Notes: generated from the sequence alone by a model not told the origin. Positions 1,809-31,742 are shown, counted from the first letter of the stretch. The stretch: 39,134 nt of DNA from an uncultured Gammaproteobacteria bacterium (GCA_964390735.1 CAYMIY010000004.1:1-39134); one strand, 5' to 3'. Made by a program: numbers and translations.

Positions 1809-4139
1809 ATGTCAGAGAAAACCTACCTAGAAAGCTTTGCTTATTATTTTAAGCGGTATAGATTTAAAGCTAATATATCCACACTTAGACAGTTTGCAGA
1901 TCTTATGGCTGCTGAGGGACTATATTATGACGTAAGTAACTACACTCGATGGCAGAATGGCGAAAGGATACCCAATGATAGAAAAATACTACTAGGTATG
2001 ATTCGCGTGTTTATAGATAAGAATGCTATAAGCACAGTTGAGGACTGTAATATATTTTTACATGCCGCGAAACAACTACCGCTAAAAAAAGGTGAAATAA
2101 GTAACTTGCAGGTATTTAAAGAAAGTATTAGAAATATGCTGCCAATAGTTTTAGACGATTTTGTAGGGAGAGAAGATTTTTTGAAAGATATAAATTGGAG
2201 ACTGATAACTTATAACAAAATTTGTATAACAGGAACAGCGGGAATTGGCAAGACTAGTTTTGTTATATATTTAGCGTATCTGCTTCAGAAAACGTTTCAG
2301 GAAGGTGTTTTTTATTTCCGAGTTGATATACAGTATATAGATACTATTTTGCTTGATATAGCGCGTTTTTATGGAGAAGATGTTAGCACAATAAAGGGAT
2401 TAAATGATAGGTTAATTTTCGTAATGAGTATCTTAAAAAGCAAAAAGACTGTTATTATACTTGATAATATTGACAATTATAAAAACATAGATAGTCTTAT
2501 AAAATCACTTGATGGATATTGTAAGTTTATACTTGTATCACAATACTCACCTCCCTTGTATCGTGATTCATATCATTTTAATTTATCTGGATTCAGTGAG
2601 ACAGAGACGTTACAATTGGCCGAGCACAAACTTGGAGAAGAGTATGTAAGGAATAATAGGGCTGAAATACTAGAAGTTGCTAAATTATCAGGATATTCAC
2701 CTCTTGCTCTTGATATTATGTTTAGTTATCTTGACACTCAGAGAATTAATGCAAAGGAACTTCTAGAAAAAATAGATAATATAATGCTGCCGATCACTTA
2801 CCAAAGCACATATGATAATAAAACTGTTGCGTCCTCAATAGAAATAAGCTTATCAACTCTAGAAAATAATGAAAAAAAAGTAGTATCTTCTTTATCTATG
2901 TTTGAAGGAACGGATATTAGTATAAGTGCTTTAAGGTCAATCCATAATATTCGTGAAGAAGAAATACGCAAAATTTTAGCAAGATTGATTGATTTATCAC
3001 TCATAGAAAGGTCAAAAACTGATAGGGTTAGAATTCATCCACTCGTAAGAACATACCTCAGACAAAAAGTAGTCTCTTACAAATGGTATCTACTATTAAC
3101 TAAGTATTACCTTCATTTGAATAATTTTGAGTACGAACTTGACAATATAAGAGGCGTAATGCAATATCTGAGTTTAAATAAACAATCAAACAGCTTAGTT
3201 AGTCTATGGAATAAAGTGGCGGTCTCATTATTAGAGGAAGGTAGATATGAAGATATAAAAACATATAAAGATATGTTGCAAAATATTGCTTATAGAGACA
3301 CTTTACCCACAATAATTTTAATACTTATAACGCTTATATACCTTCTTGCTGGATTTTTTGTATTAGTAAATCCAAATCATAGCAAGTTCTTTTCAATGAT
3401 TTACTGGCCAATAGCGAGTTACGGTCTGATCTATGGATATGTTATATACCGAAAGTGGAGAGGTTTTAGTAGTTTAATAGGTAGATCAATTTTTTTGTTT
3501 ATACTTGGGCTTACATGTCAGGTACTAGGACAGATATTATATTCTATCCTAACAATAATGGAATCGAACATTACTCCGTATCCATATCCGTCAATAGGCG
3601 ATATCGCATACTTTGGCAGTATCCCCATGTACATAATTGCAACAATCTTACTAGGACAAGCTATAGGTATTAAAATAACGTTAAGATCCTTGAGTAGTAA
3701 AATTCAATCTGTACTTATTCCAATATTTATATTAACCGCTTCATATACTGTATTTTTAAAAGATTATTATTTTGATTTCTCAAATATTCCAAAAATAATT
3801 TTGGATTTTGGTTATCCATTGGGCCAATCTATTTATTTATCTTTTATAATATTGATCTTTGTTTTATCACAACAATATCTGCTTCCTATATTAAGAAAAG
3901 GCATTTTCTTAATTATGATAGCATTAGCCATACAGTTTACAGCGGACTTTATTTTCTTGTATCGTTTTAGCCACAATATGTGGAATATCTCAGGAGATTT
4001 TGGTGACCTGATATATCTTTTAGCCTATGCTACCATGGGTTTTGCGCTTCTTCAATTTGATTACACTTACAAACTCAAGAAGCTTAATAATACCGATTTG
4101 TTCACGAAAGTGAAGAAATACATCTTTTCAACTTCCTAA
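1809..4139 (+). CDS. HTH / NB-ARC-type STAND NTPase fused to a C-terminal multi-pass membrane domain
   Basis: N-terminal XRE-like HTH segment (ISTLRQFADLMAAEG..DVSNYTRWQNGERIP). FVGREDFL...ITGTAGIGKTS is a Walker A, KTVIILDNID a Walker B, GYSPLALDIM is GLPLAL-like, and RVRIHPLVRTYL sits at the MHD-like position. The C-terminal ~270 aa are hydrophobic helices paralogous to ORF 661-1473. Confidence 0.75.
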   Translation: MSEKTYLESFAYYFKRYRFKANISTLRQFADLMAAEGLYYDVSNYTRWQNGERIPNDRKILLGMIRVFIDKNAISTVEDCNIFLHAAKQLPLKKGEISNLQVFKESIRNMLPIVLDDFVGREDFLKDINWRLITYNKICITGTAGIGKTSFVIYLAYLLQKTFQEGVFYFRVDIQYIDTILLDIARFYGEDVSTIKGLNDRLIFVMSILKSKKTVIILDNIDNYKNIDSLIKSLDGYCKFILVSQYSPPLYRDSYHFNLSGFSETETLQLAEHKLGEEYVRNNRAEILEVAKLSGYSPLALDIMFSYLDTQRINAKELLEKIDNIMLPITYQSTYDNKTVASSIEISLSTLENNEKKVVSSLSMFEGTDISISALRSIHNIREEEIRKILARLIDLSLIERSKTDRVRIHPLVRTYLRQKVVSYKWYLLLTKYYLHLNNFEYELDNIRGVMQYLSLNKQSNSLVSLWNKVAVSLLEEGRYEDIKTYKDMLQNIAYRDTLPTIILILITLIYLLAGFFVLVNPNHSKFFSMIYWPIASYGLIYGYVIYRKWRGFSSLIGRSIFLFILGLTCQVLGQILYSILTIMESNITPYPYPSIGDIAYFGSIPMYIIATILLGQAIGIKITLRSLSSKIQSVLIPIFILTASYTVFLKDYYFDFSNIPKIILDFGYPLGQSIYLSFIILIFVLSQQYLLPILRKGIFLIMIALAIQFTADFIFLYRFSHNMWNISGDFGDLIYLLAYATMGFALLQFDYTYKLKKLNNTDLFTKVKKYIFSTS

Positions 4140-4208: not shown

Positions 4209-4742
4209 ATGCATATATTATTTTTGACAGGTAATAACCAACGCAACGTGGAGTGGGCTCAAACACTCAAAAGTAAATTTGAACAGGTGGGGTATACGGC
4301 TTCGCTTATATACTCAGATACGTGGAAGATGGATACGTATGGAGATTTGGATATGTCCTATGAGTTCGAGGAATCAGCCAGGATCCTGAAAGGAATAAAG
4401 GATTATATCATTTGTTCAATTTCAACAGGGGGATTAATAGCACTAAAAGGTATGTATGAAAAGATATATTCTCCACAAAAATGTATATGTATCGGTATAC
4501 CTATTGTGTGGGGGTATGACAGATTCTCACACGAAAATGCATGGCTGGAACATTTGCATGTTCCTTCACTCTTTATTCAAAAGAACGCAGACCCGATTAC
4601 ATCTTCAGGAATGCTCAAGCGAATTCTCAAAAAAATGAACGTGCAAAACAGTAGACTGCATGAACTGGTAGGGCATACGCATACCTATAACGAAACGGAC
4701 GAGATTTTTGAGGAGTGTGTGGAATTCTTAGCTTCAAAATAG
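4209..4742 (+). CDS. Small alpha/beta-hydrolase-fold-like protein (177 aa)
   Basis: ILFLTGNN start, nucleophile-elbow-like CSISTGG, and late acidic (NADPI) and His (GHTH) residues in the usual order. The last ~15 codons (NETDEIFEEC.EFL) are repeated downstream as fragments. Confidence 0.6.
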   Translation: MHILFLTGNNQRNVEWAQTLKSKFEQVGYTASLIYSDTWKMDTYGDLDMSYEFEESARILKGIKDYIICSISTGGLIALKGMYEKIYSPQKCICIGIPIVWGYDRFSHENAWLEHLHVPSLFIQKNADPITSSGMLKRILKKMNVQNSRLHELVGHTHTYNETDEIFEECVEFLASK

Positions 4743-4752
4743 TCCTATAGTA

Positions 4753-4781
4753 TTGACAATTTCTGCTTTTTTTTATATAAT
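4753..4781 (+). promoter_or_regulatory. Consensus sigma70-type promoter of the first GC-rich cassette
   Basis: TTGACA at 4753-4758, 17-nt spacer, TATAAT at 4776-4781. It is preceded by CCTATAGT at 4744-4751, a module shared with the cassettes at 8373 and 9792. Confidence 0.6.
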
Positions 4782-4805
4782 TAGAACATAAACTGCAGAC
4801 TAATA

Positions 4806-4828
4806 GGTGGGCAAAAACCACCTTTATT
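4806..4828 (+). terminator. Short hairpin plus T-run. Either the hydrolase gene terminator or a 5' attenuator of the cassette transcript.
   Basis: GGTGG gcaaaaa CCACC followed by TTTATT. It lies about 20 nt downstream of the predicted start from the 4776 -10 box. Confidence 0.4.
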
Positions 4829-4859
4829 CTGCTTTGTGCACTTTTATATAATGCGTCTT

Positions 4860-4993
4860 CTGTACATCCTGAGAATCAGGGGCTTCTCTAGCTTATGCGT
4901 ATATTCGTAAGCTACAGGAGCCCTTGATTGGGTAGCTAGGCGTATGTCTAGCTGGATTAGTATGCGGTTGTAAGGCCGCTAAAGGAGTGTCAG
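4860..4993 (+). promoter_or_regulatory. Structured 5' leader (several hairpins) upstream of the 4994 ORF
   Basis: CCTGA-gaa-TCAGG at 4868-4880. Nested GGGCT..AGCTTA-loop-TAAGCT..AGCCC. AGCTAG-gcgtatgt-CTAGCT. GCGG-ttgtaagg-CCGC immediately before SD AAGGAG. Two of the loops contain GCGTAT. Confidence 0.3.
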
Positions 4994-5689
4994 ATGAAGA
5001 CCTACGACGTCAATGGTCGCGAAGTCACCGCCGGGATCAAAGTCGCGATGGAACCCCAGCCCCATGTGGTGCTGGGTGACGGTGGGAACAAGAGGGCGAC
5101 CTGGGTGGCCATTGGCCAACGGGACGCCGGTACGATCATCGTGCGGCCGGATATTCCCTGTCCGAAGCAGGGAGGTAGCGATTTCACCGCTGACCCCGCA
5201 ACCTGCGCAGCGGAGCATAGGTGCGATCAGTGTGGGGAAATGTATGGCCCATGGGAGTCAACCACAAAGCTATACAACTATCGCTACCACCCGAATGCTG
5301 GCACAGTGGCTGGCCCTGAGCAGATTCAGGATGCCGGCGTCATGCAGCTTGAGAGCGGGAAGATGCTGATCGTCGCCCCCCGGCAAGGTAACCGCATTCT
5401 GGTGCTCTGGCGCTTCGAGTCGGGCTACCGTGGCGGTGCCGAGATCACCGCTGGCGAAGGCGTCAAGGTCGTCGCTGCGGACAAAGCTTGGCATTCCGGC
5501 CGTGGCAACATGGGCGAGACCGCCGAGATGTTGGCCATCATGGAGCCAGGTCAGGAGCTCCGTGCCGAGCGGTCGGGACGCCACATTGAGGAGACGCATG
5601 CGCGTCTGCGATACGACGGAACGAACATCATCGTCGAGTACGGTGATGAAACGCTTTTCGCCGTTGAGGCACAGGGCCAGTACCTGTAG
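4994..5689 (+). CDS. GC-rich hypothetical protein (231 aa), possible Cys-cluster/zinc-ribbon-like element (PCP...C...CDQC)
   Basis: SD AAGGAG lies 7 nt upstream of the ATG. High third-position G+C. A hairpin terminator follows directly. The overlapping ORFs in other frames are expected from the GC-rich composition. Confidence 0.7.
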   Translation: MKTYDVNGREVTAGIKVAMEPQPHVVLGDGGNKRATWVAIGQRDAGTIIVRPDIPCPKQGGSDFTADPATCAAEHRCDQCGEMYGPWESTTKLYNYRYHPNAGTVAGPEQIQDAGVMQLESGKMLIVAPRQGNRILVLWRFESGYRGGAEITAGEGVKVVAADKAWHSGRGNMGETAEMLAIMEPGQELRAERSGRHIEETHARLRYDGTNIIVEYGDETLFAVEAQGQYL

Positions 5690-5713
5690 CACAGTTCACA
5701 GATTGTGCATTAT

Positions 5714-5768
5714 GACCAGGAACGAGTGCTTTTAGCTCTCGTTCCTGGTCCAACTACTTTATTTTTTT
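5714..5768 (+). terminator. Intrinsic terminator of the 4994-5689 cassette
   Basis: 13-bp stem GACCAGGAACGAG / CTCGTTCCTGGTC (5714-5726 / 5738-5750), followed by CAACTACTTTATTTTTTT. Confidence 0.7.
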
Positions 5769-5835
5769 ATACACACCTTCTTAATTATATTAATAACGAA
5801 ACGGACGAGATTTTTGAGGAGTGTATGGAGTTTCT
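5750..5835 (+). repeat. 86-bp direct repeat, copy 1 (identical to 7045-7130)
   Basis: CCAACTACTTTATTTTTTTATACACACCTTCTTAATTATATTAATAACGAAACGGACGAGATTTTTGAGGAGTGTATGGAGTTTCT read identically at both positions. The flanking bases differ: 5749 t vs 7044 c, and 5836 t vs 7131 g. Confidence 0.9.
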
Positions 5836-5845
5836 TAATGATTAG
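5768..5845 (+). pseudogene. Orphan 3'-end fragment of a hydrolase paralog (...NNETDEIFEECMEFLND*)
   Basis: A 32-nt core ATAACGAAACGGACGAGATTTTTGAGGAGTGT at 5793-5824 is identical to 4687-4718 of the intact gene. There is no upstream coding body. Confidence 0.75.
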
Positions 5846-5851
5846 TTGCGA

Positions 5852-6985
5852 CTAAGAAGCTAATTTCATTTCGTGGTCATTATTCACATCTCTTTCAGTT
5901 AAAAAAGCAGGTACACGACTGTCGATAAGCCATCGCTGATTTTCAGGAATGGTTGCCGTCCATTTCTGGTACATGTCTTTCATTCGTCCGGCAGTTTTTG
6001 GAAACTTATCTATAAACTCATCTATGTCAATTCGGTCTGAATTAACGTCTTCATCTGGGTAATATGAATTATCAGTTTCTATTTGATCAGTAAACTCTCC
6101 TACATCTTGCATAATGCCAGATACTAAATTGATGTTTAAATTTCTCCGATCCTCATTATAATCATACAAATCGTCTGAAAGTTGCCAGGCAAGCACAGTA
6201 TGAAGAAATGTTCGAGTTCTCATATGTGCAATTTGTTCACGTTTACCCGTAGAAACCGTATCAGGGGATACAGCAAAGATATTGGTGATAACATCAACAA
6301 ACGGTCCTACTGTACCGAAACGAAGTGCGTGAGCCTCGTCAAATGAGTAAGAGTAGCGCCCTTCAAAGCATTGTTGCATATATGTAGAGACATCTAGAAA
6401 GTTATCCATAAGCCAGGATATATGTCCGCATTCGGCTTCTGAATAAGAGTGGCTATGAACTAATATTTTTGTGAGTATATTCTTTAAGTCACTTACTGTA
6501 GCAGTTTTGTCTTCTTTGTATTTCAAAACAGGGATAGCTTCAACCACTTCAGGAGCAATATACATCAAGCCGCGCGATTCAAGTTGGCTTCTCTTTTCAT
6601 CAAAAACACTATCGGCTCGATTAAATGTATCTATAAACAGTAAGGTTGCCAAATGTTTAGCAGGATCTTTTGCATCCATATCTTGAAAGAATTTTTTTGT
6701 CATTTCGAACCAGGCGATCGAATTTGAACGTACGCCTTCTTTTAACCAGCCCGTAATAATTTCTTGCTGAGTAGTTGTCAACGAGTATTTTTCACCTAAC
6801 CGCTGAATTTCATCATTACCGGATATTCCTAGGAGCAGGCGGGCATTTATACCACCATATTCGCTTATCGCGGCATCTACTAATGCATTAGGATCCACGC
6901 TAAGTGGGTTTTTAGATTCATTATATTCAGCTATATATGCTCGTTGGTCAGAGTGACTTAATTCAGACATACTATTATTATACAC
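5852..6985 (-). CDS. Hypothetical acidic protein (377 aa from GTG 6985; 372 aa from ATG 6970), with a weak isoprenoid-synthase-like motif
   Basis: Long AT-rich ORF bracketed by the 86-bp repeats. AWQLSDDLYDYNEDRRN resembles the second Asp-rich motif of squalene/phytoene-synthase-type enzymes. On the minus strand TATAAT sits 6 nt before ATG 6970, so the mRNA may be leaderless. Confidence 0.7.
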   Translation of the reverse strand: MYNNSMSELSHSDQRAYIAEYNESKNPLSVDPNALVDAAISEYGGINARLLLGISGNDEIQRLGEKYSLTTTQQEIITGWLKEGVRSNSIAWFEMTKKFFQDMDAKDPAKHLATLLFIDTFNRADSVFDEKRSQLESRGLMYIAPEVVEAIPVLKYKEDKTATVSDLKNILTKILVHSHSYSEAECGHISWLMDNFLDVSTYMQQCFEGRYSYSFDEAHALRFGTVGPFVDVITNIFAVSPDTVSTGKREQIAHMRTRTFLHTVLAWQLSDDLYDYNEDRRNLNINLVSGIMQDVGEFTDQIETDNSYYPDEDVNSDRIDIDEFIDKFPKTAGRMKDMYQKWTATIPENQRWLIDSRVPAFLTERDVNNDHEMKLAS

Positions 6986-7044
6986 TCGTGTTTAAACAAA
7001 TTGATTTGTTAGTTTTTACTCCACACTACGGTAAAGTTCGGTGC

Positions 7045-7130
7045 CCAACTACTTTATTTTTTTATACACACCTTCTTAATTATATTAATAACGAAACGGA
7101 CGAGATTTTTGAGGAGTGTATGGAGTTTCT
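7045..7130 (+). repeat. 86-bp direct repeat, copy 2 (identical to 5750-5835)
   Basis: See copy 1. The offset between the copies is 1295 nt. Confidence 0.9.
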
Positions 7131-7155
7131 GGCTACAAATAAACCTATAGAATAA
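7063..7155 (+). pseudogene. Orphan 3'-end fragment of a hydrolase paralog (...YTHLLNYINNETDEIFEECMEFLATNKPIE*)
   Basis: This is the tail of listed ORF 6937-7155. It matches GHTHTYNETDEIFEECVEFLASK at the end of 4209-4742. The upstream part of that ORF is just the antisense of the 5852-6985 gene start region. Confidence 0.75.
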
Positions 7156-7170
7156 TTATCTATATAAATC

Positions 7171-7179
7171 TGGTATACT
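7171..7179 (+). promoter_or_regulatory. Extended -10 promoter (TGgTATACT) for 7214-7615
   Basis: TGGTATACT at 7171-7179. SD AGAGG lies upstream of ATG 7214. Confidence 0.45.
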
Positions 7180-7213
7180 ATTACTAGAAAAAGTAGATAA
7201 AAAGAGGTGTCCC

Positions 7214-7615
7214 ATGCCTAAAGTCAAGAAGCAAGCTGCACATGTTGTACCTTATGCCGAGGAACTTATGCAGTACAGTAAGATCGTAAGTGAATTACTA
7301 AATCTGTTCGGTCTCCAGCTTATTAAAAGGTTGGAACTTCAACGAGCCAGAGGAATACTTACTCTGAGCACAGAGCCTATAGATCCAAAGCGAGCTGAGT
7401 GGAACAAGCTTGCAGCAGCATGGCGGGCTGAAACAGCGGATGTTCTCAGGACAGCCAGAGATAAACAGAAGTCTTTCTGTGATCGACTAATGACCATCCG
7501 TGCGACTCTCGCTCCCTCTGCATATTCCGTGGTTACGAAACAGATCCAGAAAAATAACCGTCGCTATGCAAGGAGCGATTTGAAGCTTCGGCGGGCTAGG
7601 CTTGAGGATCTGTAA
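7214..7615 (+). CDS. Small helical/coiled-coil-like protein, family member 1 (133 aa)
   Basis: Shares AEWNKLAAAWR and the C-terminal LRRARLEDL with the ORFs at 7856 and 8900. Charged, heptad-like composition. Confidence 0.75.
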   Translation: MPKVKKQAAHVVPYAEELMQYSKIVSELLNLFGLQLIKRLELQRARGILTLSTEPIDPKRAEWNKLAAAWRAETADVLRTARDKQKSFCDRLMTIRATLAPSAYSVVTKQIQKNNRRYARSDLKLRRARLEDL

Positions 7616-7644
7616 TAGGAGCTGACAACTTTTTCCAAACTACA

Positions 7645-7675
7645 ACCAGTACTGGGCGACAAACTCAGTACTGGT
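7645..7675 (+). terminator. Hairpin after 7214-7615
   Basis: ACCAGTACTG ... CAGTACTGGT. The outer arms are homologous to the hairpin at 9302-9332. The downstream T-tract is weak. Confidence 0.5.
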
Positions 7676-7710
7676 AACATCTTTCTCAATTCCATAATAC
7701 GGATGCATAA

Positions 7711-7768
7711 AATAATAACGGACGATATTTTTGAGGAGTGGATAGAGGTTTTGAATGGTACTTTATGA
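7711..7768 (+). pseudogene. Most degraded hydrolase 3'-end fragment
   Basis: AATAATAACGGACGATATTTTTGAGGAGTGGATAGAGG aligns to the 4687-4725 core with a 5-nt deletion (frame-breaking) and several substitutions. Confidence 0.6.
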
Positions 7769-7774
7769 TATAAT
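7766..7774 (+). promoter_or_regulatory. Extended -10 promoter (TGaTATAAT) for 7856-8251
   Basis: TGATATAAT at 7766-7774. The leader contains the palindrome TGAACG-ca-CGTTCA. Confidence 0.45.
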
Positions 7775-7855
7775 ATATCACTTTGTGATAGATTGTTGGG
7801 AGGCTTGAACGCACGTTCATACGAACCTTACGTAATGTAGATAAGGAGAACGAAA

Positions 7856-8251
7856 GTGCAAAGAATGGACCAGGAAGCGATCAACCGCGAGCACAAGCTC
7901 GCGCGATATGTACGAATAGTAGAAAGGTTTGCGGAAGAGGTTGGCAAGCTAATTAAGCAGCAGGAAGCTCTCAAAAAGGAGCGCCGAAACATTGTGTCAG
8001 CGCGCACGCCAGACAAAGGAAAGATGGTCAACTGGAACGAGCGAGCTATCGCTTGGCGTAATCTCCAGTTTGGTGCTCTCAGAAAAATGAGAGCTAAGGA
8101 ACACGAGGTATTGACAGAACTTTCAGATATGCTTTCGCGACTTGAGGAAAACGAAAGAAGCGCATTCGAGAACAAAAAAAATCAGATCAAGCGAGCTTTC
8201 AAGAAAGAGTACCTGAGGCTCAGATCGCGGAATCTAGATGAGATTCAATAG
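7856..8251 (+). CDS. Small helical/coiled-coil-like protein, family member 2 (131 aa, GTG start)
   Basis: SD AGGAG lies 7 nt before GTG 7856. VNWNERAIAWR and the C-terminal LRLRSRNLDEIQ align with members 1 and 3. Confidence 0.75.
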   Translation: MQRMDQEAINREHKLARYVRIVERFAEEVGKLIKQQEALKKERRNIVSARTPDKGKMVNWNERAIAWRNLQFGALRKMRAKEHEVLTELSDMLSRLEENERSAFENKKNQIKRAFKKEYLRLRSRNLDEIQ

Positions 8252-8269
8252 ATTCCAGTCTGCACACAC

Positions 8270-8308
8270 ATTGGTGTCTGGTCTGGCTCCGCCAGACCAG
8301 ACACCAAT
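8270..8308 (+). terminator. Perfect 18-bp stem / 3-nt loop hairpin after 7856-8251
   Basis: ATTGGTGTCTGGTCTGGC tcc GCCAGACCAGACACCAAT, followed by ACTACTT rather than a clean T-run. Confidence 0.5.
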
Positions 8309-8381
8309 ACTACTTAAAATGACTCAAAACAATGAAATGATAATAGAGAATGCTAATTCATGATGAATAAGTCCTATAATA

Positions 8382-8410
8382 TTGAATTATAACATTGTAT
8401 TTGCTATACT
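8382..8410 (+). promoter_or_regulatory. Sigma70-type promoter of the second GC-rich cassette
   Basis: TTGAAT at 8382-8387, 17-nt spacer, TATACT at 8405-8410. CCTATAAT at 8373-8380 sits at the same 32-nt offset from the -10 box as in the 4744 module. Confidence 0.55.
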
Positions 8411-8419
8411 TTCTACATC

Positions 8420-8439
8420 TGGCCCTTATGCATGGGCCA
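8420..8439 (+). promoter_or_regulatory. Conserved 5'-UTR hairpin / inverted repeat TGGCCC-N8-GGGCCA
   Basis: Lies between the -10 box and the SD. A homologous element is at 9840-9859. Both are followed by (A)GGA(G/A)G..TCGACATG. Confidence 0.5.
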
Positions 8440-8456
8440 ATACACAAGGAGTCGAC

Positions 8457-8768
8457 ATGAAAATCCAGCTGATTGATGCAGAAGGCGTCCTGGTGCGTTC
8501 GGTGCTGGCGGCTATGCCCAATAGCCTCGATTCGGGGATGCGCGTCCAGATCACCGATGAGGTCTGGAGGCGCTCCGGGGAGGATATCCATCCTGATGCG
8601 CTCTTGTTCTCAATGATCGGCGATGCCTGGGCCCGGGTGGCCTGGGATGCCCTCACCCTCAAGTATGTCATTACTGTGGTGGGGAGGGACCTTGCCGCTG
8701 CTATGAACTGCTGGCGGGCGGCCCTTCTCCACGTGGGTGTGGAGGTTGCCCGGGTCGTCGCCTTGTAG
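8457..8768 (+). CDS. GC-rich hypothetical protein (103 aa), paralog of 9881-10198
   Basis: SD AAGGAG precedes ATG 8457; the listed ORF starts at TTG 8382, which lies inside the promoter. It aligns by eye with the 9881 product (MKIQLIDAEG / MTLHLVGKDG; RVQITDE / RLMITGT; ARVAWD...YVITVVGRDL.AA / ATLHWH...YFTVVSDNLTNA). Confidence 0.7.
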   Translation: MKIQLIDAEGVLVRSVLAAMPNSLDSGMRVQITDEVWRRSGEDIHPDALLFSMIGDAWARVAWDALTLKYVITVVGRDLAAAMNCWRAALLHVGVEVARVVAL

Positions 8769-8776
8769 CAGCACAG

Positions 8777-8815
8777 GGTTTGCGGGACGGAGTTTTCACT
8801 TTCGTCCCGCAAACC
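8777..8815 (+). terminator. GC-rich hairpin after 8457-8768
   Basis: GGTTTGCGGGACG ... CGTCCCGCAAACC. The arms are identical to those of the hairpin at 10208-10243. Confidence 0.55.
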
Positions 8816-8854
8816 TATAATCTTTCGCAATACGCATTATACCTACCTTCTATT

Positions 8855-8863
8855 TGATATAAT
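8855..8863 (+). promoter_or_regulatory. Extended -10 promoter (TGaTATAAT) for 8900-9292
   Basis: TGATATAAT at 8855-8863. SD AAGGAGG precedes ATG 8900. Confidence 0.45.
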
Positions 8864-8899
8864 ACCGTCAGGCAACAAAAACAAAAAGGAGGATGTCCA

Positions 8900-9292
8900 A
8901 TGGCTAAGTCAAAACTTCGCCCTGAACTCGCAAGTGCGATTGAGGCCTACAAAACGGTCGTCCTTGAGCAGAAAAAGAATCTGGACAGTGCTTTTAACAC
9001 ATTCGACCGTTTGAGGAAAAGGCGCAATGGGTTCATTCAAAAAAAGAACCAGGAAGAGGAAGTCCGGCAGAACTGGAACAAGAGCGCGGCAGAATGGCGC
9101 GTTACCAAAGAGCGAGTGTTGGCTGCAGCTCAGATGGCACATGGTCCGGCGCATGCTCGTATAACGGCAGTGTTGAATGGTCTGAACAATACAGAAGAGC
9201 ACTACAAATTTCAGCGGCAGTTTCATACGATAAATGGCTTTTTTACGGCTGCAGATAGAAAACTTCGGGAGGCTCAGCTCGAGGATCTGTAG
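8900..9292 (+). CDS. Small helical/coiled-coil-like protein, family member 3 (130 aa)
   Basis: QNWNKSAAEWR and the C-terminal KLREAQLEDL match member 1. Strong SD. Confidence 0.75.
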   Translation: MAKSKLRPELASAIEAYKTVVLEQKKNLDSAFNTFDRLRKRRNGFIQKKNQEEEVRQNWNKSAAEWRVTKERVLAAAQMAHGPAHARITAVLNGLNNTEEHYKFQRQFHTINGFFTAADRKLREAQLEDL

Positions 9293-9301
9293 CATTCATC
9301 A

Positions 9302-9332
9302 CACCAGTGCCGAGCAAAGCTCGGTACTGGTG
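9302..9332 (+). terminator. Hairpin after 8900-9292
   Basis: CACCAGTGCCGAGC aaa GCTCGGTACTGGTG. It overlaps the next promoter. Confidence 0.5.
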
Positions 9333-9339
9333 GTATAAT
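9331..9339 (+). promoter_or_regulatory. Extended -10 promoter (TGgTATAAT) for 9373-9738
   Basis: TGGTATAAT at 9331-9339. SD AAGGAGG precedes ATG 9373. Confidence 0.45.
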
Positions 9340-9372
9340 GGAGCAGGACAAGCAATCAATAAGGAGGATACG

Positions 9373-9738
9373 ATGGACGCTAGGATCAAAATCAAATTCA
9401 ACACGGTGATATTTCATCTAGAGGAGCTGGCGACAGATCTAAACCGTCTGAAATTGTTACTGCGCTACGTTACACCATTGAGGAGTAAACGCAAACGATC
9501 GAAGAAAGAGACCGATAAGCTGACAGGCTATTTGAGGTCAGCAGAAGGTACTCTCGAGGATGCTGAAAATCAGAAGAAGGATATAGATGAAGGTCTGAGA
9601 CTTATTGCTCAGCTCGTTCAGAAACATACCATTACTCTGAATAAACAAGATAAGGAAACTATCGCAAATGCGCGCACAACATGCGACACATTAATCGCAG
9701 ATTGCCGGGCGTTGTATAATAGAATTAGCAGCACATAG
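9373..9738 (+). CDS. Small helical hypothetical protein (121 aa), not obviously in the WN..A..WR family
   Basis: Start moved from listed 9307 to ATG 9373, because 9307-9332 is the preceding hairpin and AAGGAGG lies 5 nt before 9373. Charged, heptad-like sequence. Confidence 0.7.
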   Translation: MDARIKIKFNTVIFHLEELATDLNRLKLLLRYVTPLRSKRKRSKKETDKLTGYLRSAEGTLEDAENQKKDIDEGLRLIAQLVQKHTITLNKQDKETIANARTTCDTLIADCRALYNRISST

Positions 9739-9749
9739 ACTCACTATCA

Positions 9750-9776
9750 TCAGATCTGGGCTCAGCCCAGATCTGA
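9750..9776 (+). terminator. Perfect 12-bp stem / 3-nt loop hairpin after 9373-9738
   Basis: TCAGATCTGGGC tca GCCCAGATCTGA, followed by AACTACTTTTT. Confidence 0.55.
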
Positions 9777-9821
9777 AACTACTTTTTAAAACCTATAATA
9801 CTACACTTTTTTCCTATATTT

Positions 9822-9830
9822 TGATATAAT
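9822..9830 (+). promoter_or_regulatory. Extended -10 promoter (TGaTATAAT) of the third GC-rich cassette
   Basis: TGATATAAT at 9822-9830. CCTATAAT at 9792-9799 lies 33 nt upstream of the -10 hexamer. Confidence 0.5.
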
Positions 9831-9839
9831 TGCCAGATG

Positions 9840-9859
9840 TGGCCCACATGTAGAGGCCA
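9840..9859 (+). promoter_or_regulatory. Conserved 5'-UTR hairpin / inverted repeat TGGCC-N10-GGCCA
   Basis: Homologous in position and sequence to 8420-8439. Confidence 0.45.
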
Positions 9860-9880
9860 AGAACAGAGGAAGGTATCGAC

Positions 9881-10198
9881 ATGCCAATGACACTTCACTT
9901 GGTTGGTAAAGACGGGCGCAAAGCGGGTATGCCGCTCGATGCACTGCCCCAGGAACTGCCGCCGAATACGCGGCTGATGATCACCGGCACCCTCACAGAC
10001 GATGAGGGCTCGACTGACGGGCCCGATCACTTTCTGACCGCGTGCGGCAGCAATGGCTATGCCACGCTGCACTGGCATGATTGTGATTGCTATTTCACCG
10101 TCGTGTCGGACAACCTGACCAACGCGGCGGTGCTTCTGCAGGCCTGCTATAAGCTGGCTGGCGCGAACGTGGCGATGGTTTTGTCCTGCCAGATCTAG
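9881..10198 (+). CDS. GC-rich, Cys-containing hypothetical protein (105 aa), paralog of 8457-8768
   Basis: SD GGAAGG, then TCGAC ATG as in the 8457 cassette. High third-position G+C. Same terminator arms as the 8457 cassette. Confidence 0.7.
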   Translation: MPMTLHLVGKDGRKAGMPLDALPQELPPNTRLMITGTLTDDEGSTDGPDHFLTACGSNGYATLHWHDCDCYFTVVSDNLTNAAVLLQACYKLAGANVAMVLSCQI

Positions 10199-10207
10199 CT
10201 TTCCCTC

Positions 10208-10243
10208 GTTTGCGGGACGGAGCTTAGCTCACGTCCCGCAAAC
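10208..10243 (+). terminator. GC-rich hairpin after 9881-10198
   Basis: GTTTGCGGGACG ... CGTCCCGCAAAC, followed by TTATTCATT. Confidence 0.55.
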
Positions 10244-10275
10244 TTATTCATTCCTTAATTCTGGGATTAACCTGA

Positions 10276-10305
10276 TTGACTTTCTCCCTGTAGATCCGCT
10301 ATAAA
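10276..10305 (+). promoter_or_regulatory. Possible promoter of the histidine kinase gene
   Basis: TTGACT at 10276-10281, 18-nt spacer, TATAAA at 10300-10305. ATG 10312 would then be nearly leaderless. Confidence 0.3.
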
Positions 10306-10311
10306 TAATGT

Positions 10312-13116
10312 ATGAGTTCTTTCAGTAGCTATATTGTAATGGTGTCTTTTGTGATGACATCGATACTCTCGCTCATTGTCTATATTAACAATCCGAAATC
10401 GTGGACAAACAGACTTCTCTGTATGCTTGGCAGCATGCTGGCATACATCATTCTGTTCAATTATTTTGCAGTCACTGCAGAAACTGAAGTACAACGCGTA
10501 TTCTGGATACGATCCATCATGGCAATTACGTCGATTATACCAATCACCATGATTGTGCTGGCGCACACATTCCCGGAACGAGAAATAACTCTCAATAAAT
10601 ACTTCATTTTTTCAGGTATTTGTTTTTCACTTGCACTTGGCGTACTTTCTTATACTGAACAGATAATATCTCATTACACTCGAAGTGATCTTATCGCTCC
10701 GTTTATCCCTGGTTTATCTACCTTGTTGTATGGTATCTATTTTGCGACTTCCATGATATTAGCCATACTTATGTTATTTAAGAAGTATAAACATAGTGTT
10801 GGGATAGCACGTATGCAGATCAAATATTTCATCCTGGGTGTATTCCTGGTTTGGGGATTGATATTCGTTGCAAACATTATGTTTGTCGTTATACTTAAAA
10901 CCGTAGATTTTACGCTTTATGGACCTTCGATATCATTTATTCTTGTTGGACTTCTGACATATGCAATACTCAGACATCGATTTCTCGATGTCAGGATGGT
11001 TGCCATGAGATCGATCGTATATCTCATGGTAGGATTACTCCTAAGCATAGCATATGCGCTCAGCCTTTTTACTCTACGACTTTTTGTTTTCAATATACCA
11101 ATCAATCTATATAACCTGTTTACCTCTACGGTGCTTGCGTTAATTATGGCATATAGTTTTCATCCTCTGAGTAAGTTTTTTAAATCGCTTACTGATAAAT
11201 ACTTTTTTAAAAGTGGATATGATTCGAATAAACTGCTACGCATACTCGGAAGAATAATGTCATCAACCTATGTTCTTGCTGACTTAACGGATCTTATTTT
11301 GCATCAAATAATGCAGACGTTAAAAATATCATCCGGATATATCGTTCTTATTAAAGATGCAAAGATCACGTGGCATAAAGTGAACGGAGACAAGGAAGCG
11401 GATCTGAAAGATAATGAAATAGACTACCTTATCCAGGCAGCTCATATGAAAAAAACAGAAAACGTACTCATTTTCGAAGAAATGGAAGAAGAAAAAGAAA
11501 AAGAGATAATGAGAAAGTATCACGTCAGTATCGTTTTACCACTCATTGTAAAAAATGAAGTAATTGGAGGCATGCTTCTGGGGCCCAAAGAATCGGGTGA
11601 TATGTATTCAGTGGAAGACATTAACATTCTCAAAATCATAACGCCGGAGATTGCGATGGCCATTCAAAACTCCGAGTCATACGAAGAGATCAAAACATTT
11701 AACATGACTCTCGAAAACAAAATAGAACAGGCTACTGATGAGTTTAGACAGATCAATGAGGAAGTATATAAAAAAAATCTCGAACTCGCAGAGCGTAACA
11801 AAACACTCATGCTCTTGAGACAAATTGATGAAGTCGTACTGAGCTCAGTTACTGATACCAAGCAGATAGGACAGAAAGTAGTTGACCTCATAGCAGAAAC
11901 TGCTCATTTTAGATTTGTCATGATTTCAGTTATCGACAAAGAACATAAAAAAATAAACGATCTGGCGATTGCTGCGCAGAAAAATAATCTTCCTGCAACT
12001 CTTGTCGCGGGGAATATGAGTATTTCAATGTACGATGAATCAAATCTGATCGTCAAATCGATACGCCACAAAACAATCGAACGTACAACAAAAGGGAGTG
12101 AAATACTCGGAACAATACCCATACAAGAGCATATTAATGAATGGGTCGCATACCCCATGGTTGTTCGTGGCGAGGCAATGGGAGCGTTGGTGATCGGACT
12201 CGAGAAAGGTTATGCAGAGCTGAGTGAATATCAGAAGGATCTTATAGATCGGTTAGTAAGTGTTATAGGGATTTCACTTGATAACGCAGTCCTGTATCAG
12301 ACACTTCAGGATGCCAATGAGCGGCTCAAGCAGATTGATTACATGAAGGATGAATTCGTTTCAGTCGCATCACATGAACTGAGAACACCGATGACGGCAA
12401 TCAGATCCTACTTATGGCTTGCATTATCAGGAAAAGGTGGCGAACTCACCGAAAAGCAGAAATTCTATCTTGAAAGATCATATAACTCCACAACCCGTCT
12501 TATTAAGCTGGTAAACGACATGTTGAATGTATCTAGAATTGAGTCCGGACGTATGAGTTTTGAGATGCAAGAGGTAGACATGGCAAAACTGACTGATGAA
12601 GTGATCGGAGAAGTAAAGCCACGCGCTGATGAACTCGGGGTGATTCTCCGCGTCGAAAAAGCGTTATCTCAGTTACCCCATGTAGTAGCCGACCCTGACA
12701 AAATAAAGGAAGTAATGATTAATTTCATTGGTAATGCATTTAAATTTACGCCTAAAGAAGGAGAAATCGTTGTTCATTTCAAAATAGAAGGACAGGAACT
12801 TGTAACCACAGTAACAGATACGGGTGAAGGCATCGCAAACGATGATATAAGCAAACTATTCCAGAAATTCAGCCTCGTCAAAGGATCGTATCAGACTAAC
12901 CAGCAGGCATCACAGGGAACAGGCCTTGGCTTGTATATTTCAAAATCAATTATTACTGAACACCAAGGAAAGATCTGGGCTGCTTCACCCGGTCGGGGAA
13001 AAGGTGCGACATTTGGATTTACATTACCATTGTTTACTGAAAATATGCTTGCCATGATGAAAGAAGCCCACGGGGGAAGCGATAGTGGTCTGGGCATTAT
13101 TCACACGGAAATATAG
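10312..13116 (+). CDS. Sensor histidine kinase: N-terminal 7TM-type membrane domain, two GAF-like regions, HisKA and HATPase_c domains
   Basis: H-box FVSVASHELRTPMTAIRSY, N-box INFIGNAFKFTP, G1 VTDTGEGI, G2 GTGLGLYISKSI. The N-terminal ~300 aa are hydrophobic, with YINNPKSWTNRL as seen in 7TM kinase N-domains. No response regulator gene is in the window. Confidence 0.9.
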   Translation: MSSFSSYIVMVSFVMTSILSLIVYINNPKSWTNRLLCMLGSMLAYIILFNYFAVTAETEVQRVFWIRSIMAITSIIPITMIVLAHTFPEREITLNKYFIFSGICFSLALGVLSYTEQIISHYTRSDLIAPFIPGLSTLLYGIYFATSMILAILMLFKKYKHSVGIARMQIKYFILGVFLVWGLIFVANIMFVVILKTVDFTLYGPSISFILVGLLTYAILRHRFLDVRMVAMRSIVYLMVGLLLSIAYALSLFTLRLFVFNIPINLYNLFTSTVLALIMAYSFHPLSKFFKSLTDKYFFKSGYDSNKLLRILGRIMSSTYVLADLTDLILHQIMQTLKISSGYIVLIKDAKITWHKVNGDKEADLKDNEIDYLIQAAHMKKTENVLIFEEMEEEKEKEIMRKYHVSIVLPLIVKNEVIGGMLLGPKESGDMYSVEDINILKIITPEIAMAIQNSESYEEIKTFNMTLENKIEQATDEFRQINEEVYKKNLELAERNKTLMLLRQIDEVVLSSVTDTKQIGQKVVDLIAETAHFRFVMISVIDKEHKKINDLAIAAQKNNLPATLVAGNMSISMYDESNLIVKSIRHKTIERTTKGSEILGTIPIQEHINEWVAYPMVVRGEAMGALVIGLEKGYAELSEYQKDLIDRLVSVIGISLDNAVLYQTLQDANERLKQIDYMKDEFVSVASHELRTPMTAIRSYLWLALSGKGGELTEKQKFYLERSYNSTTRLIKLVNDMLNVSRIESGRMSFEMQEVDMAKLTDEVIGEVKPRADELGVILRVEKALSQLPHVVADPDKIKEVMINFIGNAFKFTPKEGEIVVHFKIEGQELVTTVTDTGEGIANDDISKLFQKFSLVKGSYQTNQQASQGTGLGLYISKSIITEHQGKIWAASPGRGKGATFGFTLPLFTENMLAMMKEAHGGSDSGLGIIHTEI

Positions 13117-26782: not shown

Positions 26783-27253
26783 TCATACGTTGCTAGAATT
26801 AATAATTTCGTAAAATTCGTTTACATCTGCGAGAATTTTCTTCTGCTCAGGACCCGAAAGAGATGAATTATGTAAATTTAGTTCGAAATCAGACATGATA
26901 TGTTCAACCGATATATGAGAGGCATGTATATCCTTTGCTGGATTTCGTGAAAGCCAGCCTTGCTGAATACATAAGGAGCAAAGTTTACGGAGTGTAGAGA
27001 AGCGTCGGTTAATGGTCTTCTCAGGTATGCCGGAAGCCTGCTGATACTCTTTGTATTCATGAAAGTTCACCTCATTCAATAATTCGTTTAACTCAAAGGA
27101 ATTTGCGATATTTTTCTTATAACTGGTGATCCATCCTGCATAATGCCTGTAGTCTGAGAGATAACTCGTCAAGGTAGAAGCAGAAATATTTTCCGCAAGT
27201 AGATAAGTTTTGAACGTAGCTTCGATATTATGAAAATTATATGTGTTACTCAT
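26783..27253 (-). CDS. Stand-alone integrase-SAM-like (core-binding) domain protein, no catalytic domain (156 aa)
   Basis: FKTYLLAENISASTLTSYLSDYRHYAGWI and TINRRFSTLRKLCSLCIQQGWLSRNPAKDI fit the N-terminal SAM-like domain of tyrosine recombinases. The protein ends with no R..HxxR..Y catalytic region. Confidence 0.65.
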   Translation of the reverse strand: MSNTYNFHNIEATFKTYLLAENISASTLTSYLSDYRHYAGWITSYKKNIANSFELNELLNEVNFHEYKEYQQASGIPEKTINRRFSTLRKLCSLCIQQGWLSRNPAKDIHASHISVEHIMSDFELNLHNSSLSGPEQKKILADVNEFYEIINSSNV

Positions 27254-30275: not shown

Positions 30276-31742
30276 TTAAAATGTACCTGATGCAAAGTAC
30301 AGGATACGAGTCTGGTAATAAGCTGCTTGCTGAGTTGCACTCACATTTAGTCTATAACACACATATAACTGCTGGGTTGATGATGGTGCTGTAGAAGATG
30401 CGATCTGCTGAGCTGCGGTAACGCCTGCACAATTGGTAGAATTGTTACAGGCAAATTGTTTCGCGCAGTAAGATCCTCCCGAACAGTTTCCCGAAGTTGT
30501 ACTGTACTGGAAGGGTACCGTAGAAGTAGAATTCTCAAGCGAATATCCCCATCCATTTGTTGTAGTAGTATTCCATCTACCTGTTGTTGTTGCACTACAG
30601 TTGGCACCATCGCATGTCGTATCAGATAAGGTTGTATCAGGAGTGCCATCTCCGTTAGTATCTGCAGAAAGTTCATCGTCCTCAGCGACTTTTACCACAT
30701 ATCCCGAAGTTGCGTTCGTAGAAACGGCAAGTAAATGTGCTGCATCATAGAATGCACCTGTGGTTGTGATATCACCGAATGGAACTGCCGTTGCGGTGGT
30801 TGTAACCGATGTTGAAACACCGCAATGAGTAGCAGCAGCAGCTACACCAGAAATCTGGAATGTAAGCGATGGGTTTACCGTGGCAGAAACGAGCACCGCT
30901 TCAATTGGTGATACGGTAACTATGACACTATCGACTACGTTATAACTTGGATACTGTAGTAGTTGAATTCTTAGGTTATACGTATCGGCGAGTCCCTGTG
31001 TATGACCTGTTTTAGGAGCAGGATTAATGAGTGCACGTGAAGTATTGCCAACTGTCATTGTAAGGGCCTGTGCAGCACTCAACGTTCCTGCAAATCTACA
31101 TTCAAATGCGTGATAGTTACTACCAAAAGTTGAAGATGCCGTCGCGGTAGCAGTTTGCCATGTGCCTACTCCGCCGCCTGTTGGGCATGTAATATTTGCT
31201 GCAGCAATACTGTTAAAGTCAAAGCCTGCACTTGATAGTCCATCAGGTGCACCATCGTTCGAACCTGAAGTATTACTGCCTGCAGGTATAAGTACACGAA
31301 TTGCTCCCTGATTAATTGATGACTGATTCGTAAAGGCTAAGGTATGTGACGCTGACTGTGAAGCATACACCGTATCACCGTTCGCAACACCAATAGTAGA
31401 TGCTGTAACGGTACTGAATGTCGTTGTACCTGAAACTGTAGCGACCTTTAGGCTACCCATATTTCCAATGGAGATCGTATCCTGTGGAAAGAGGTGACTT
31501 GTATTCACATCAGGGTTTCCTGAGTTCTGGATTGTCCAGTTTGATGTACCCACTGACTGTGCACCAGAGACTTTCGCATAATACGAAAGACGAGAGTTAG
31601 AAAGAGTGTCAGATGCAGAGTACAAATTTCCTGAATCCGTAACAGGAGGTATTTTTACAAGAAAAAGATATGTTCCCTGAAAAAATATAAAAAAGTACAG
31701 CAAAATTTTATACACAAGACGACCAGAAAATAGCTTTTTCAT
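30276..31742 (-). CDS. Surface-fibre subunit-like protein (488 aa), tandem paralog A; WxL-like C-terminal domain
   Basis: N-terminal hydrophobic anchor or signal. The C-terminal half (LTFQISGV...VPFGDI...GYVVKVAEDD...NGWGYSLEN...LYVCYRLNVS...AAYYQTRILYFASGTF) has the order of motifs seen in WxL / fimbrial-type beta-sandwich subunits. Confidence 0.6.
   Translation of the reverse strand: MKKLFSGRLVYKILLYFFIFFQGTYLFLVKIPPVTDSGNLYSASDTLSNSRLSYYAKVSGAQSVGTSNWTIQNSGNPDVNTSHLFPQDTISIGNMGSLKVATVSGTTTFSTVTASTIGVANGDTVYASQSASHTLAFTNQSSINQGAIRVLIPAGSNTSGSNDGAPDGLSSAGFDFNSIAAANITCPTGGGVGTWQTATATASSTFGSNYHAFECRFAGTLSAAQALTMTVGNTSRALINPAPKTGHTQGLADTYNLRIQLLQYPSYNVVDSVIVTVSPIEAVLVSATVNPSLTFQISGVAAAATHCGVSTSVTTTATAVPFGDITTTGAFYDAAHLLAVSTNATSGYVVKVAEDDELSADTNGDGTPDTTLSDTTCDGANCSATTTGRWNTTTTNGWGYSLENSTSTVPFQYSTTSGNCSGGSYCAKQFACNNSTNCAGVTAAQQIASSTAPSSTQQLYVCYRLNVSATQQAAYYQTRILYFASGTF

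Follow-up and report, generated by a model that had tools for sequence, protein, structure and literature searches.

The question raised by this locus is why two nearby genes have kept nearly the same non-coding DNA around them when the proteins that they encode have become widely different. The locus is part of a 39,134-nucleotide (nt) stretch of DNA assigned to an uncultured Gammaproteobacteria bacterium (GCA_964390735.1, CAYMIY010000004.1:1-39134), the whole of which is here called the window, and the two genes are carried on its plus strand by two short GC-rich cassettes, A (8373-8816) and B (9792-10243). Here we analyzed the architecture, the divergence and the surroundings of these cassettes together with 18 further loci. 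We consider it reasonably probable that A and B go back to an old duplication in which one autonomous transcription unit was copied as a whole, and that the regulatory parts of the unit are under selection.

A preliminary description of this DNA had listed five elements in common to the two cassettes, and direct reading of positions 8000-10700 located each of them where it had been placed. Cassette A begins with a box, CCTATAAT (8373-8380), which is directly 5′ of a weak -35-like hexamer TTGAAT (8382-8387) and is followed, in TTGAAT-17-TATACT spacing, by an extended -10 element TGCTATACT (8402-8410) in which TATACT (8405-8410) is preceded by TGn. Transcription would start at about 8417, and thereafter come the leader palindrome TGGCCC-TTATGCAT-GGGCCA (8420-8439), predicted to form a 5′-terminal stem-loop, a Shine-Dalgarno sequence AAGGAG (8446-8451) lying 5 nt 5′ of the ATG, and an open reading frame (ORF) of 103 amino acids (aa) at 8457-8768, with a GC content of 0.61 and a third-position GC content (GC3) of 0.75, which encodes an orphan protein of predicted beta-sheet and C-terminal helix. 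The unit is closed by a 3′ hairpin (8776-8816) whose arms GTTTGCGGGACGGAG and CGTCCCGCAAAC span 8778-8814 and whose final bases also form part of the next cassette's CCTATAAT box (8814-8821). Cassette B has the same order: the CCTATAAT box (9792-9799), an extended -10 element TGATATAAT (9822-9830; TATAAT at 9825-9830, preceded by TGn), a probable start at about 9837, the palindrome TGGCC(C)-ACATGTAG(A)-GGCCA (9840-9859), also a predicted stem-loop, the Shine-Dalgarno sequence GAGGAAGG (9866-9873), the ORF paralogous to A (9881-10198; 105 aa, GC 0.59, GC3 0.74; an alternative start at 9887 would give 103 aa) and the 3′ hairpin (10208-10243), which is the last element before the promoter of a histidine-kinase gene. 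The distance from the box to the -10 hexamer is 32 nt in A and 33 nt in B, as had been reported, and the hairpin arms are exact in both.

Alignment of A with B gave 66% identity from the box to the ATG, 86% in the hairpin and 45% in the ORF. The likeness of the flanks is above chance, with a downstream score of 46 against 13.5 +/- 2.4 (0/1000 dinucleotide shuffles) and an upstream local alignment score of 30 against 15.4 +/- 2.5 (1/1000 dinucleotide shuffles); the two units are homologous, and their non-coding scaffolds are better kept than the coding sequence, which was the central claim of the earlier description. The same contrast is seen with A′, an orthologue of A on a contig from another assembly (L001) with 69% amino-acid and 76.6% nucleotide identity: the box and -35 hexamer are 90% identical, the promoter spacer 44%, the -10 element and leader 88%, the ORF 77%, and the terminator with the next promoter 91%, after which the next gene is essentially unalignable beyond its ATGGCTAAG. 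A further member, C, is present in an unrelated ENA assembly from a different metagenome (L006) and has AAGTCCTATAATATTGAATT, TTGATACAAT, TGGCCC-GCATGTAT-GGGTCA and a hairpin GGGTTTGCAGGACAGG-TTTAT-CCTTGTCCCGCAAACC with the conserved arm sequences GGGTTTGCAGGAC...GTCCCGCAAACC; a block AGTCCTATAATATTGAA at the box of A is identical at A′ and at C. The boxes are better kept than spacers, loops and synonymous sites. Because spacers and loops vary while the boxes, stems and Shine-Dalgarno sequences stay fixed, the pattern points to selection on the regulatory elements and not to recent copying. Three of the loci (L007, L008 and L009) are of the same strain as the window (99.9-100% identity) and hence hold no comparative information. 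SRR16481186, SRR4000971 and SRR32548942 are among the samples in which the strain of the window is present.

Between the window and a second strain (L003), 20 of the 23 differences fall inside a 180-nt tract, 9777-9956, which runs from the spacer through the first 25 codons of B; the divergence is 26% in the promoter spacer, 10.7% in codons 1-25 and 3.4% in the intervening leader, and it is 0.8% or lower elsewhere save for the 53 nt just 5′ of the box (3.8%) and the box itself (2/8). This tract represents either an import by recombination or two hypervariable patches.

Two parts of the earlier list were too broad. The Shine-Dalgarno sequence and the start context TCGACATG are indeed present in both A and B, but TCGACATG is changed to TCTATCATG in A′, to TCGATATG in B of the second strain and to TTTCTCATG in C, and its sharing by A and B is probably coincidental. 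The CCTATAAT box with its promoter module is common to A and B but not specific for them, as it also precedes the cassettes of a 231-aa, a 133-aa and a 130-aa gene in the same array (4744, 7144 and 8814); the upstream regions of A or B aligned with those of the 231-aa and 130-aa cassettes with local scores of 22-28, which were equalled in 3-13 of 1000 shuffles, and the module is a property of the whole array and not of A and B alone.

The flanks might also have been a common dispersed repeat with no relation to these genes; within the window and the 18 loci they do not appear to be one. The hairpin has two copies in the window, each directly 3′ of A and B, and in the 18 loci its motif was found behind A, B or C genes only, plus one variant at the boundary of the array with the histidine-kinase gene (L004). 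No exact match to the hairpin motif was found in JGI metagenome or IMG/VR contigs.

The proteins of A and B align end to end by BLASTP (25% identity, E = 4e-8), and their codon alignment has 27% amino-acid and 45% nucleotide identity with third positions at 48%. Comparison of A with A′ gave dS 0.80, dN 0.17 and an omega (dN/dS) of 0.215, with 17, 14 and 42 changes at codon positions 1, 2 and 3 (42/73 at the third), and the annotated plus-strand frame is the sole frame open across all homologues. The omega value, the codon-position pattern and a GC3 above that of host genes (see below) show that A and B are real genes, and the omega is that of purifying selection. AlphaFold2 models of A (pLDDT 73) and B (pLDDT 81) have an identical order of five to six strands followed by the C-terminal helix. 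Four members of the family are known so far. A, B and A′ alone were recovered when 5.8 billion proteins were searched with word seeding, and member C (P0004) was found by a full HMMER search over 1.84 billion representative proteins (E = 1.5e-15), being 49% identical to B and 29% to A and so bridging the two. The other HMMER matches were long proteins with short multiple matching stretches, judged spurious without inspection. For the function of A and B, no match better than E = 0.17 was obtained from Pfam, NCBIfam, PADLOC, PHROGs or PDB sequence profiles, or from Foldseek, in which two models were compared with PDB and BFVD; no protein relatives were found in IMG/VR, phage or plasmid records, and DNA scans with the motifs gave zero matches in JGI metagenome contigs (two scans) and in IMG/VR.

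Other readings of the same DNA were tried and rejected. A non-coding RNA, or chance ORFs in GC-rich DNA, are ruled out by the codon-position substitutions, the omega of 0.215 and the single open frame; the folding of the whole transcripts is unremarkable (z of -1.8 to -2.0 for A and B), and Rfam gave nothing at gathering thresholds or at E <= 1. Antisense overlapping genes on the minus strand (8426-8830 and 9779-10078) are closed in the homologues, and the mini-ORF that would open at the ATG of the leader loop is not conserved, as it has 10 codons in A and 6 codons in C and consists of ATG-TAG in B.

Each gene family of the array has its own type of terminator, as the downstream scores of A against B (46) and of the 130-aa against the 133-aa gene (23) were each reached in 0/1000 shuffles, and cross-family downstream comparisons of A or B with other cassettes were at chance level. 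Family-specific terminators together with homologous payloads lead to the reading that ORF and flanks descend together from the duplication of a whole unit.

The 3′ hairpins of A and B fold with -29 kcal/mol (z = -6.4 and -7.3) and have stems of 13-17 base pairs (bp). When 13 pairs were scored in the hairpins of A, A′, B, C and the L004 boundary, five in all, 95% of the cells were paired, an 8-bp core was invariant, and there were three double-sided pair changes (G-C to U-A; U-A to C-G; G-C/G.U/A-U), a result equalled by 6 of 500 shuffles; slid registers, taken as a control, pair at 25-50%. This covariation argues that the 3′ hairpin is a structure. The boundary hairpin, CTGCGGGACGGAA...TTCCGTCCCGCAG, has the same GCGGGACGG core and is situated behind a different gene, 5′ of the histidine kinase. 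The 2.8-kb contig that carries it (CAYXCP010000171.1) encodes a histidine-kinase orthologue with 95% identity and is binned in an 'uncultured Gammaproteobacteria' metagenome-assembled genome (MAG), which is probably a mis-binning.

The pattern TGGCCC-N8-10-GGYCA occurs twice in the 39 kb, both times in the leaders of A and B, with 0.04 occurrences expected; none of 100 shuffles gave 3 matches, and across the 18 loci it was found solely 5′ of genes of the A/B/C family. In all four members, A, A′, B and C, it starts 9-10 nt past the -10 hexamer (10 nt in A and B) and about 3 nt past the probable transcription start, and this agrees with the earlier proposal that its position would suit an operator or an element of RNA stability. 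Pairing of the leader stem in RNA is plausible. The GGGTCA of C would form a G.U pair, which is tolerated in RNA; the outer T-A pair is lost in A′. Stem-loops at the 5′ end are established mRNA stabilisers in Escherichia coli ompA (Emory, Bouvet and Belasco 1992) and papA and in Bacillus subtilis aprE (Hambraeus et al. 2002), the references being given in the review PMC3997798. The leaders of A and B resemble these in having a short GC stem-loop about 3-4 nt from the likely 5′ end, followed by a strong Shine-Dalgarno sequence; unlike a stabiliser that acts by pairing only, their sequence is kept beyond the needs of pairing and there is no covariation, and their start is placed by the spacing from the -10 element.

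On these grounds a unit of the following kind is proposed, located in a strain-variable and co-directional array between an alpha/beta-hydrolase-like gene and the histidine-kinase gene. A promoter of sigma-70 type, with the CCTATAAT box, a weak -35 and a TGn-extended -10, would start transcription about 3 nt before a 5-6-bp GC stem-loop. In this terminal position the stem-loop would protect the mRNA against 5′-end-dependent decay, and it could also, or instead, serve as the operator of a dimeric repressor. The Shine-Dalgarno sequence would drive translation of a cytosolic protein of about 104 aa, with beta-sheet and C-terminal helix, under purifying selection. The GC-rich hairpin of 13-17 bp would end the transcript and protect its 3′ end, so that 5′ stem-loop and 3′ hairpin would bracket the mRNA with protective structures. 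After the duplication of the unit the proteins would have drifted to 27% identity, with the regulatory elements held almost fixed by selection.

Several observations weigh against this proposal. The tails of the hairpins (A CUAUAAUCUUUC; B UUAUUCAUUCC) are moderately U-rich and have no clean U tract, and a consensus scan flagged the hairpin of A as terminator-like but not that of B. Terminators normally require pairing rather than a particular sequence, and the invariant 8-bp core with identical arms in A and B is more sequence conservation than a terminator model needs. The duplication of whole units gives no account of the lasting GC-richness amid AT-rich neighbours, and with four distinct family members in all the statistics are thin throughout. 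Finally, no double compensatory change is seen in the leader stem and B has lost the sixth pair of it, which makes a DNA operator equally possible for this element.

The operator is possible, though somewhat doubtful, as the sole explanation of the palindrome: a dimeric repressor bound at +4 to +23 would co-regulate A, B and C, and the RNA hairpin would be incidental. The 20-bp palindrome TGGCCC-N8-GGGCCA keeps a constant distance from the -10 element in all members, its sequence is itself conserved beyond pairing with no compensatory change, a CATG/ATGCAT sub-palindrome is retained at the loop centre in A, B and C (as read from the alignment), and the folding energy of the leaders is ordinary (z = -1.5 in A and -0.04 in B). 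As against this, the array contains no candidate regulator gene, the GGGTCA of C breaks the DNA symmetry but keeps an RNA G.U pair, and A′ is without the outer T-A pair. The two roles are moreover compatible and not exclusive, and either of them, mRNA stabilisation or operator, may apply to the palindrome.

The second group of explanations concerns the origin of the cassettes and depends on the array in which they lie. This array (4209-10311, plus strand) extends over about 6 kb and consists of single-gene units of 231, 133, 131, 103 (A), 130, 121 and 105 (B) aa. A promoter-like site and a strong perfect hairpin of 12-18 bp accompany every unit; the alpha/beta-hydrolase-like gene (4209-4742, plus; 177 aa, weak C-terminal matches) heads the array, and a 377-aa gene, which follows the 231-aa gene, lies on the minus strand. 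Between strains the order and neighbourhood of the cassettes vary. In L001 A′ is preceded by a gene of the 130-aa type, and in L002 the homology of B with the window starts at 9819, at the -10 box, with unrelated sequence further 5′. The 3′ end of the hydrolase gene (core AACGGACGAGATTTTTGAGGAGTG, coding ...NETDEIFEEC...) has four copies, at 4687-4738, 5793-5844, 7088-7139 and 7710-7761, where none is expected; its last 24-50 nt recur, two copies share 95 nt at 96% identity, and a remnant is also present in L010, L013 and L016. The pattern suggests that insertions took place one after another where a single gene ends, and the re-duplication points to an insertion hot spot. A further junction element, (A)ACTACTTT, is repeated after four different cassette hairpins (5751, 7046, 8309 and 9777).

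Phage morons are reportedly autonomous promoter-ORF-terminator units lying between prophage genes, as described by Hendrix, Juhala and colleagues. A and B are like them in having a single ORF with its own predicted promoter and hairpin terminator and a composition unlike the surrounding DNA, and unlike them in being stacked in an array, paralogous and flanked by chromosomal genes (ComEC, ComEA, RNase HII and histidine kinase); no prophage context was found, with no significant PHROGs match and with neither DNA nor protein matches among 50,697 phage records or in IMG/VR. Integron cassettes, which are generally promoterless, lie next to an IntI tyrosine recombinase with attI and the Pc promoter and carry at their 3′ ends attC sites with RYYYAAC...GTTRRRY cores. 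The array shares with them units that end in an imperfect inverted repeat, the co-directional arrangement and a strain-variable order; it differs in that the hairpin of A and B opens with GTTTGCG and closes with CGCAAAC, which is the opposite order, with no R′′/R′ cores, in that the other cassettes have unrelated hairpins, and in that every unit has a predicted TGn-TATAAT-type -10 element and a conserved upstream box. IntI, attI and Pc were not found, and no recombinase was found among the ORFs of the array in Pfam, NCBIfam and PADLOC. The rAID-1 arrays of Bacteroidales have a 5′ XerD-like recombinase and low-GC genes (41% GC or lower) homologous to immunity families (Ross et al., bioRxiv 10.1101/471110). 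The likeness of the present array to them is in co-directional small genes, skewed GC, repetitive intergenic sequences and strain differences, but here the skew is towards a GC content above that of the host. Pfam, NCBIfam and PADLOC showed no recombinase adjacent to the array, the upstream genes being STAND NTPase-like and alpha/beta-hydrolase-like, and searches of Pfam, NCBIfam, PADLOC, PHROGs and PDB sequences and with Foldseek found no homology to immunity, defence or other families. In operation the units are like phage morons, and in appearance the array is like those of rAID-1 and integrons; the defining features of each, namely a prophage context, a XerD-like recombinase with immunity homologues, and IntI with attC, were looked for and not found.

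Mobile gene cassettes, in which the hairpin and/or the CCTATAAT box would be recombination sites for a trans-acting recombinase and the array an integron-like or island accretion behind the hydrolase gene, are in our opinion the chief rival account of how the array was built, and an unlikely one. The co-directional single-gene units with repeated junction motifs agree with such an origin, as do the four unexpected copies of AACGGACGAGATTTTTGAGGAGTG, which would be a signature of serial site-specific insertion, the strain-variable neighbours of A and B in L001 and L002, their composition unlike the host, and the GCGGGACGG-core hairpin behind a different gene in L004. The evidence on the other side is the absence of any recombinase in or beside the array in Pfam, NCBIfam, PADLOC and PHROGs, a lone integrase-like fragment being 16 kb away; hairpins that are family-specific and not universal; arms in which direct reading found no attC-like RYYYAAC...GTTRRRY; a predicted promoter of its own on every unit; the sole mapped breakpoint (L002), which lies at the -10 box, within the promoter spacer, and away from any hairpin; and the hydrolase remnants, which end at 7761 with none flanking A or B.

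A wider and more speculative form of this idea, for which we see only a small chance, takes A and B as units of an undescribed cassette-accretion system, probably of Candidate Phyla Radiation (CPR)/Patescibacteria, in which self-contained foreign GC-rich modules would be stacked behind a hydrolase gene whose 3′ end was duplicated again at successive junctions. A factor acting in trans would recognise the hairpin core and the CCTATAAT box, and an active process, such as biased gene conversion in a recombination hot spot or repeated import from a high-GC partner organism, would keep the modules GC-rich.

GC at codon positions 1, 2 and 3 is 0.66, 0.42 and 0.75 in A and 0.59, 0.44 and 0.74 in B, GC3 of host genes is 0.39 (histidine kinase) and 0.26 (STAND-like gene), and codon usage of A and B is strongly unlike that of host genes; across three genomes the GC3 of the family is 0.59-0.75 and that of adjoining genes 0.37-0.48. 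A GC3 that lasts despite saturated divergence is not what simple transfer with later amelioration predicts, and GC-rich coding sequence in AT-rich, host-like flanks is left unexplained by ordinary horizontal transfer and amelioration.

A fixed scaffold in which payloads were swapped between cassettes or driven apart by diversifying selection, which had been the interpretation of the preliminary description, is very improbable, and neither of its two forms was borne out. It would fit with flanks that are more similar than the ORFs, with the recurrent differences of A and A′ at residues 8-22, and with the alleles of B, in which 8 of 10 coding differences are in the first 25 codons and are mostly non-synonymous (omega of about 0.6), ten differences being too few for testing. 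The omega of A against A′ is that of purifying and not diversifying selection, and the payloads are homologous over their full length with one predicted order of strands and helix, so that no unrelated payload can have been exchanged. Concerted evolution, in which gene conversion between the A and B of one genome would take the place of selection, is scarcely credible as the source of the flank identity, for although A and B share identical arms within their genome and A′ and C each have 1-3 arm changes, the loops, the promoter spacer and the sequence just beyond the arms differ between A and B, which would confine conversion to patches of 12-15 nt, the flanks of A are nearer to A′ (81% upstream, 94% hairpin) than to B (66% and 86%), and C retains the same motifs in another organism.

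If A and B are, as we favour, duplicates of one whole transcription unit, they provide a clean natural case of regulatory DNA that outlasts its protein, with box, palindrome and hairpin kept nearly letter for letter around proteins of 27% identity, and their conserved elements would be specific control elements in a lineage where little is known on promoters, mRNA decay and termination. Should the array turn out to serve acquisition, it would stand beside integrons and rAID arrays as a relative that is recombinase-less or served in trans, in bacteria that depend on other cells; if it does not, the result is an orphan gene family with well-conserved regulatory signals, which would be useful for annotation and unsurprising.

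The remaining genes of the array have features of their own. Four paralogous genes for helical orphan proteins of about 120-133 aa (7214-7615, 7856-8251, 8900-9292 and 9373-9738, all plus strand) are interleaved with A and B. This family of about 130 aa has a WN..A..W motif and a ...LEDL C-terminus and is as rare as the A/B family, with around five members in 5.8 billion proteins; the C gene, too, follows a gene of this family. One terminator type, CCAGTAC(C/T)GGG..., is common to the 133-aa and 130-aa genes, and the 131-aa and 121-aa genes have different hairpins. In L008 (1800-2159) a 1-nt indel relative to 8900-9292 of the window changes the 130-aa gene into one with a 119-aa product, the contigs being 99.97% identical; it may be a frameshift polymorphism or an assembly error. 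In L016 (383-1698), from another metagenome, an insertion with a Transposase_mut (IS256-type) gene interrupts the 131-aa gene's orthologue after some 65 codons.

The 231-aa gene (4994-5689, plus strand) is also GC-rich, and its leader (4785-4993) of about 200 nt is predicted to fold into a three-hairpin multiloop (-87 kcal/mol, z = -6.7) with no Rfam match; the leader in L013 is about 90% identical, with changes mostly in or beside the loops. Among its 60 homologues is one from a Candidatus Paceibacterota MAG; the gene is GC-rich in the window and L013 and of host-like composition in Paceibacterota. Homologues in other CPR contigs follow intergenic regions of 400-1000 nt and stand beside TrmB-type regulators. 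From the Paceibacterota homologue and the gene content the host is probably a member of CPR/Patescibacteria.

The wider window is chromosomal, with ComEC, ComEA, RNase HII, PaaX, histidine kinase and giant surface proteins. Just 5′ of the array, at 1809-4139, is a 776-aa STAND/NACHT/NB-ARC-like NTPase gene (GC 0.31, GC3 0.26), which may indicate a defence-island context. On the minus strand, a 156-aa ORF (26783-27253) has a phage-integrase N-terminal SAM-like domain alone and is a truncated remnant adjoining a 2874-aa giant gene. Two tandem 488-aa genes (30276-31742 and 31883-33349, minus strand) are 86% identical and Ser/Thr-rich, encode probable surface proteins and have no Pfam match. ComEC is split into two overlapping minus-strand ORFs (34429-35487 and 35319-36110; Competence and metallo-beta-lactamase domains), which could be due to a frameshift, a pseudogene or a sequencing error.

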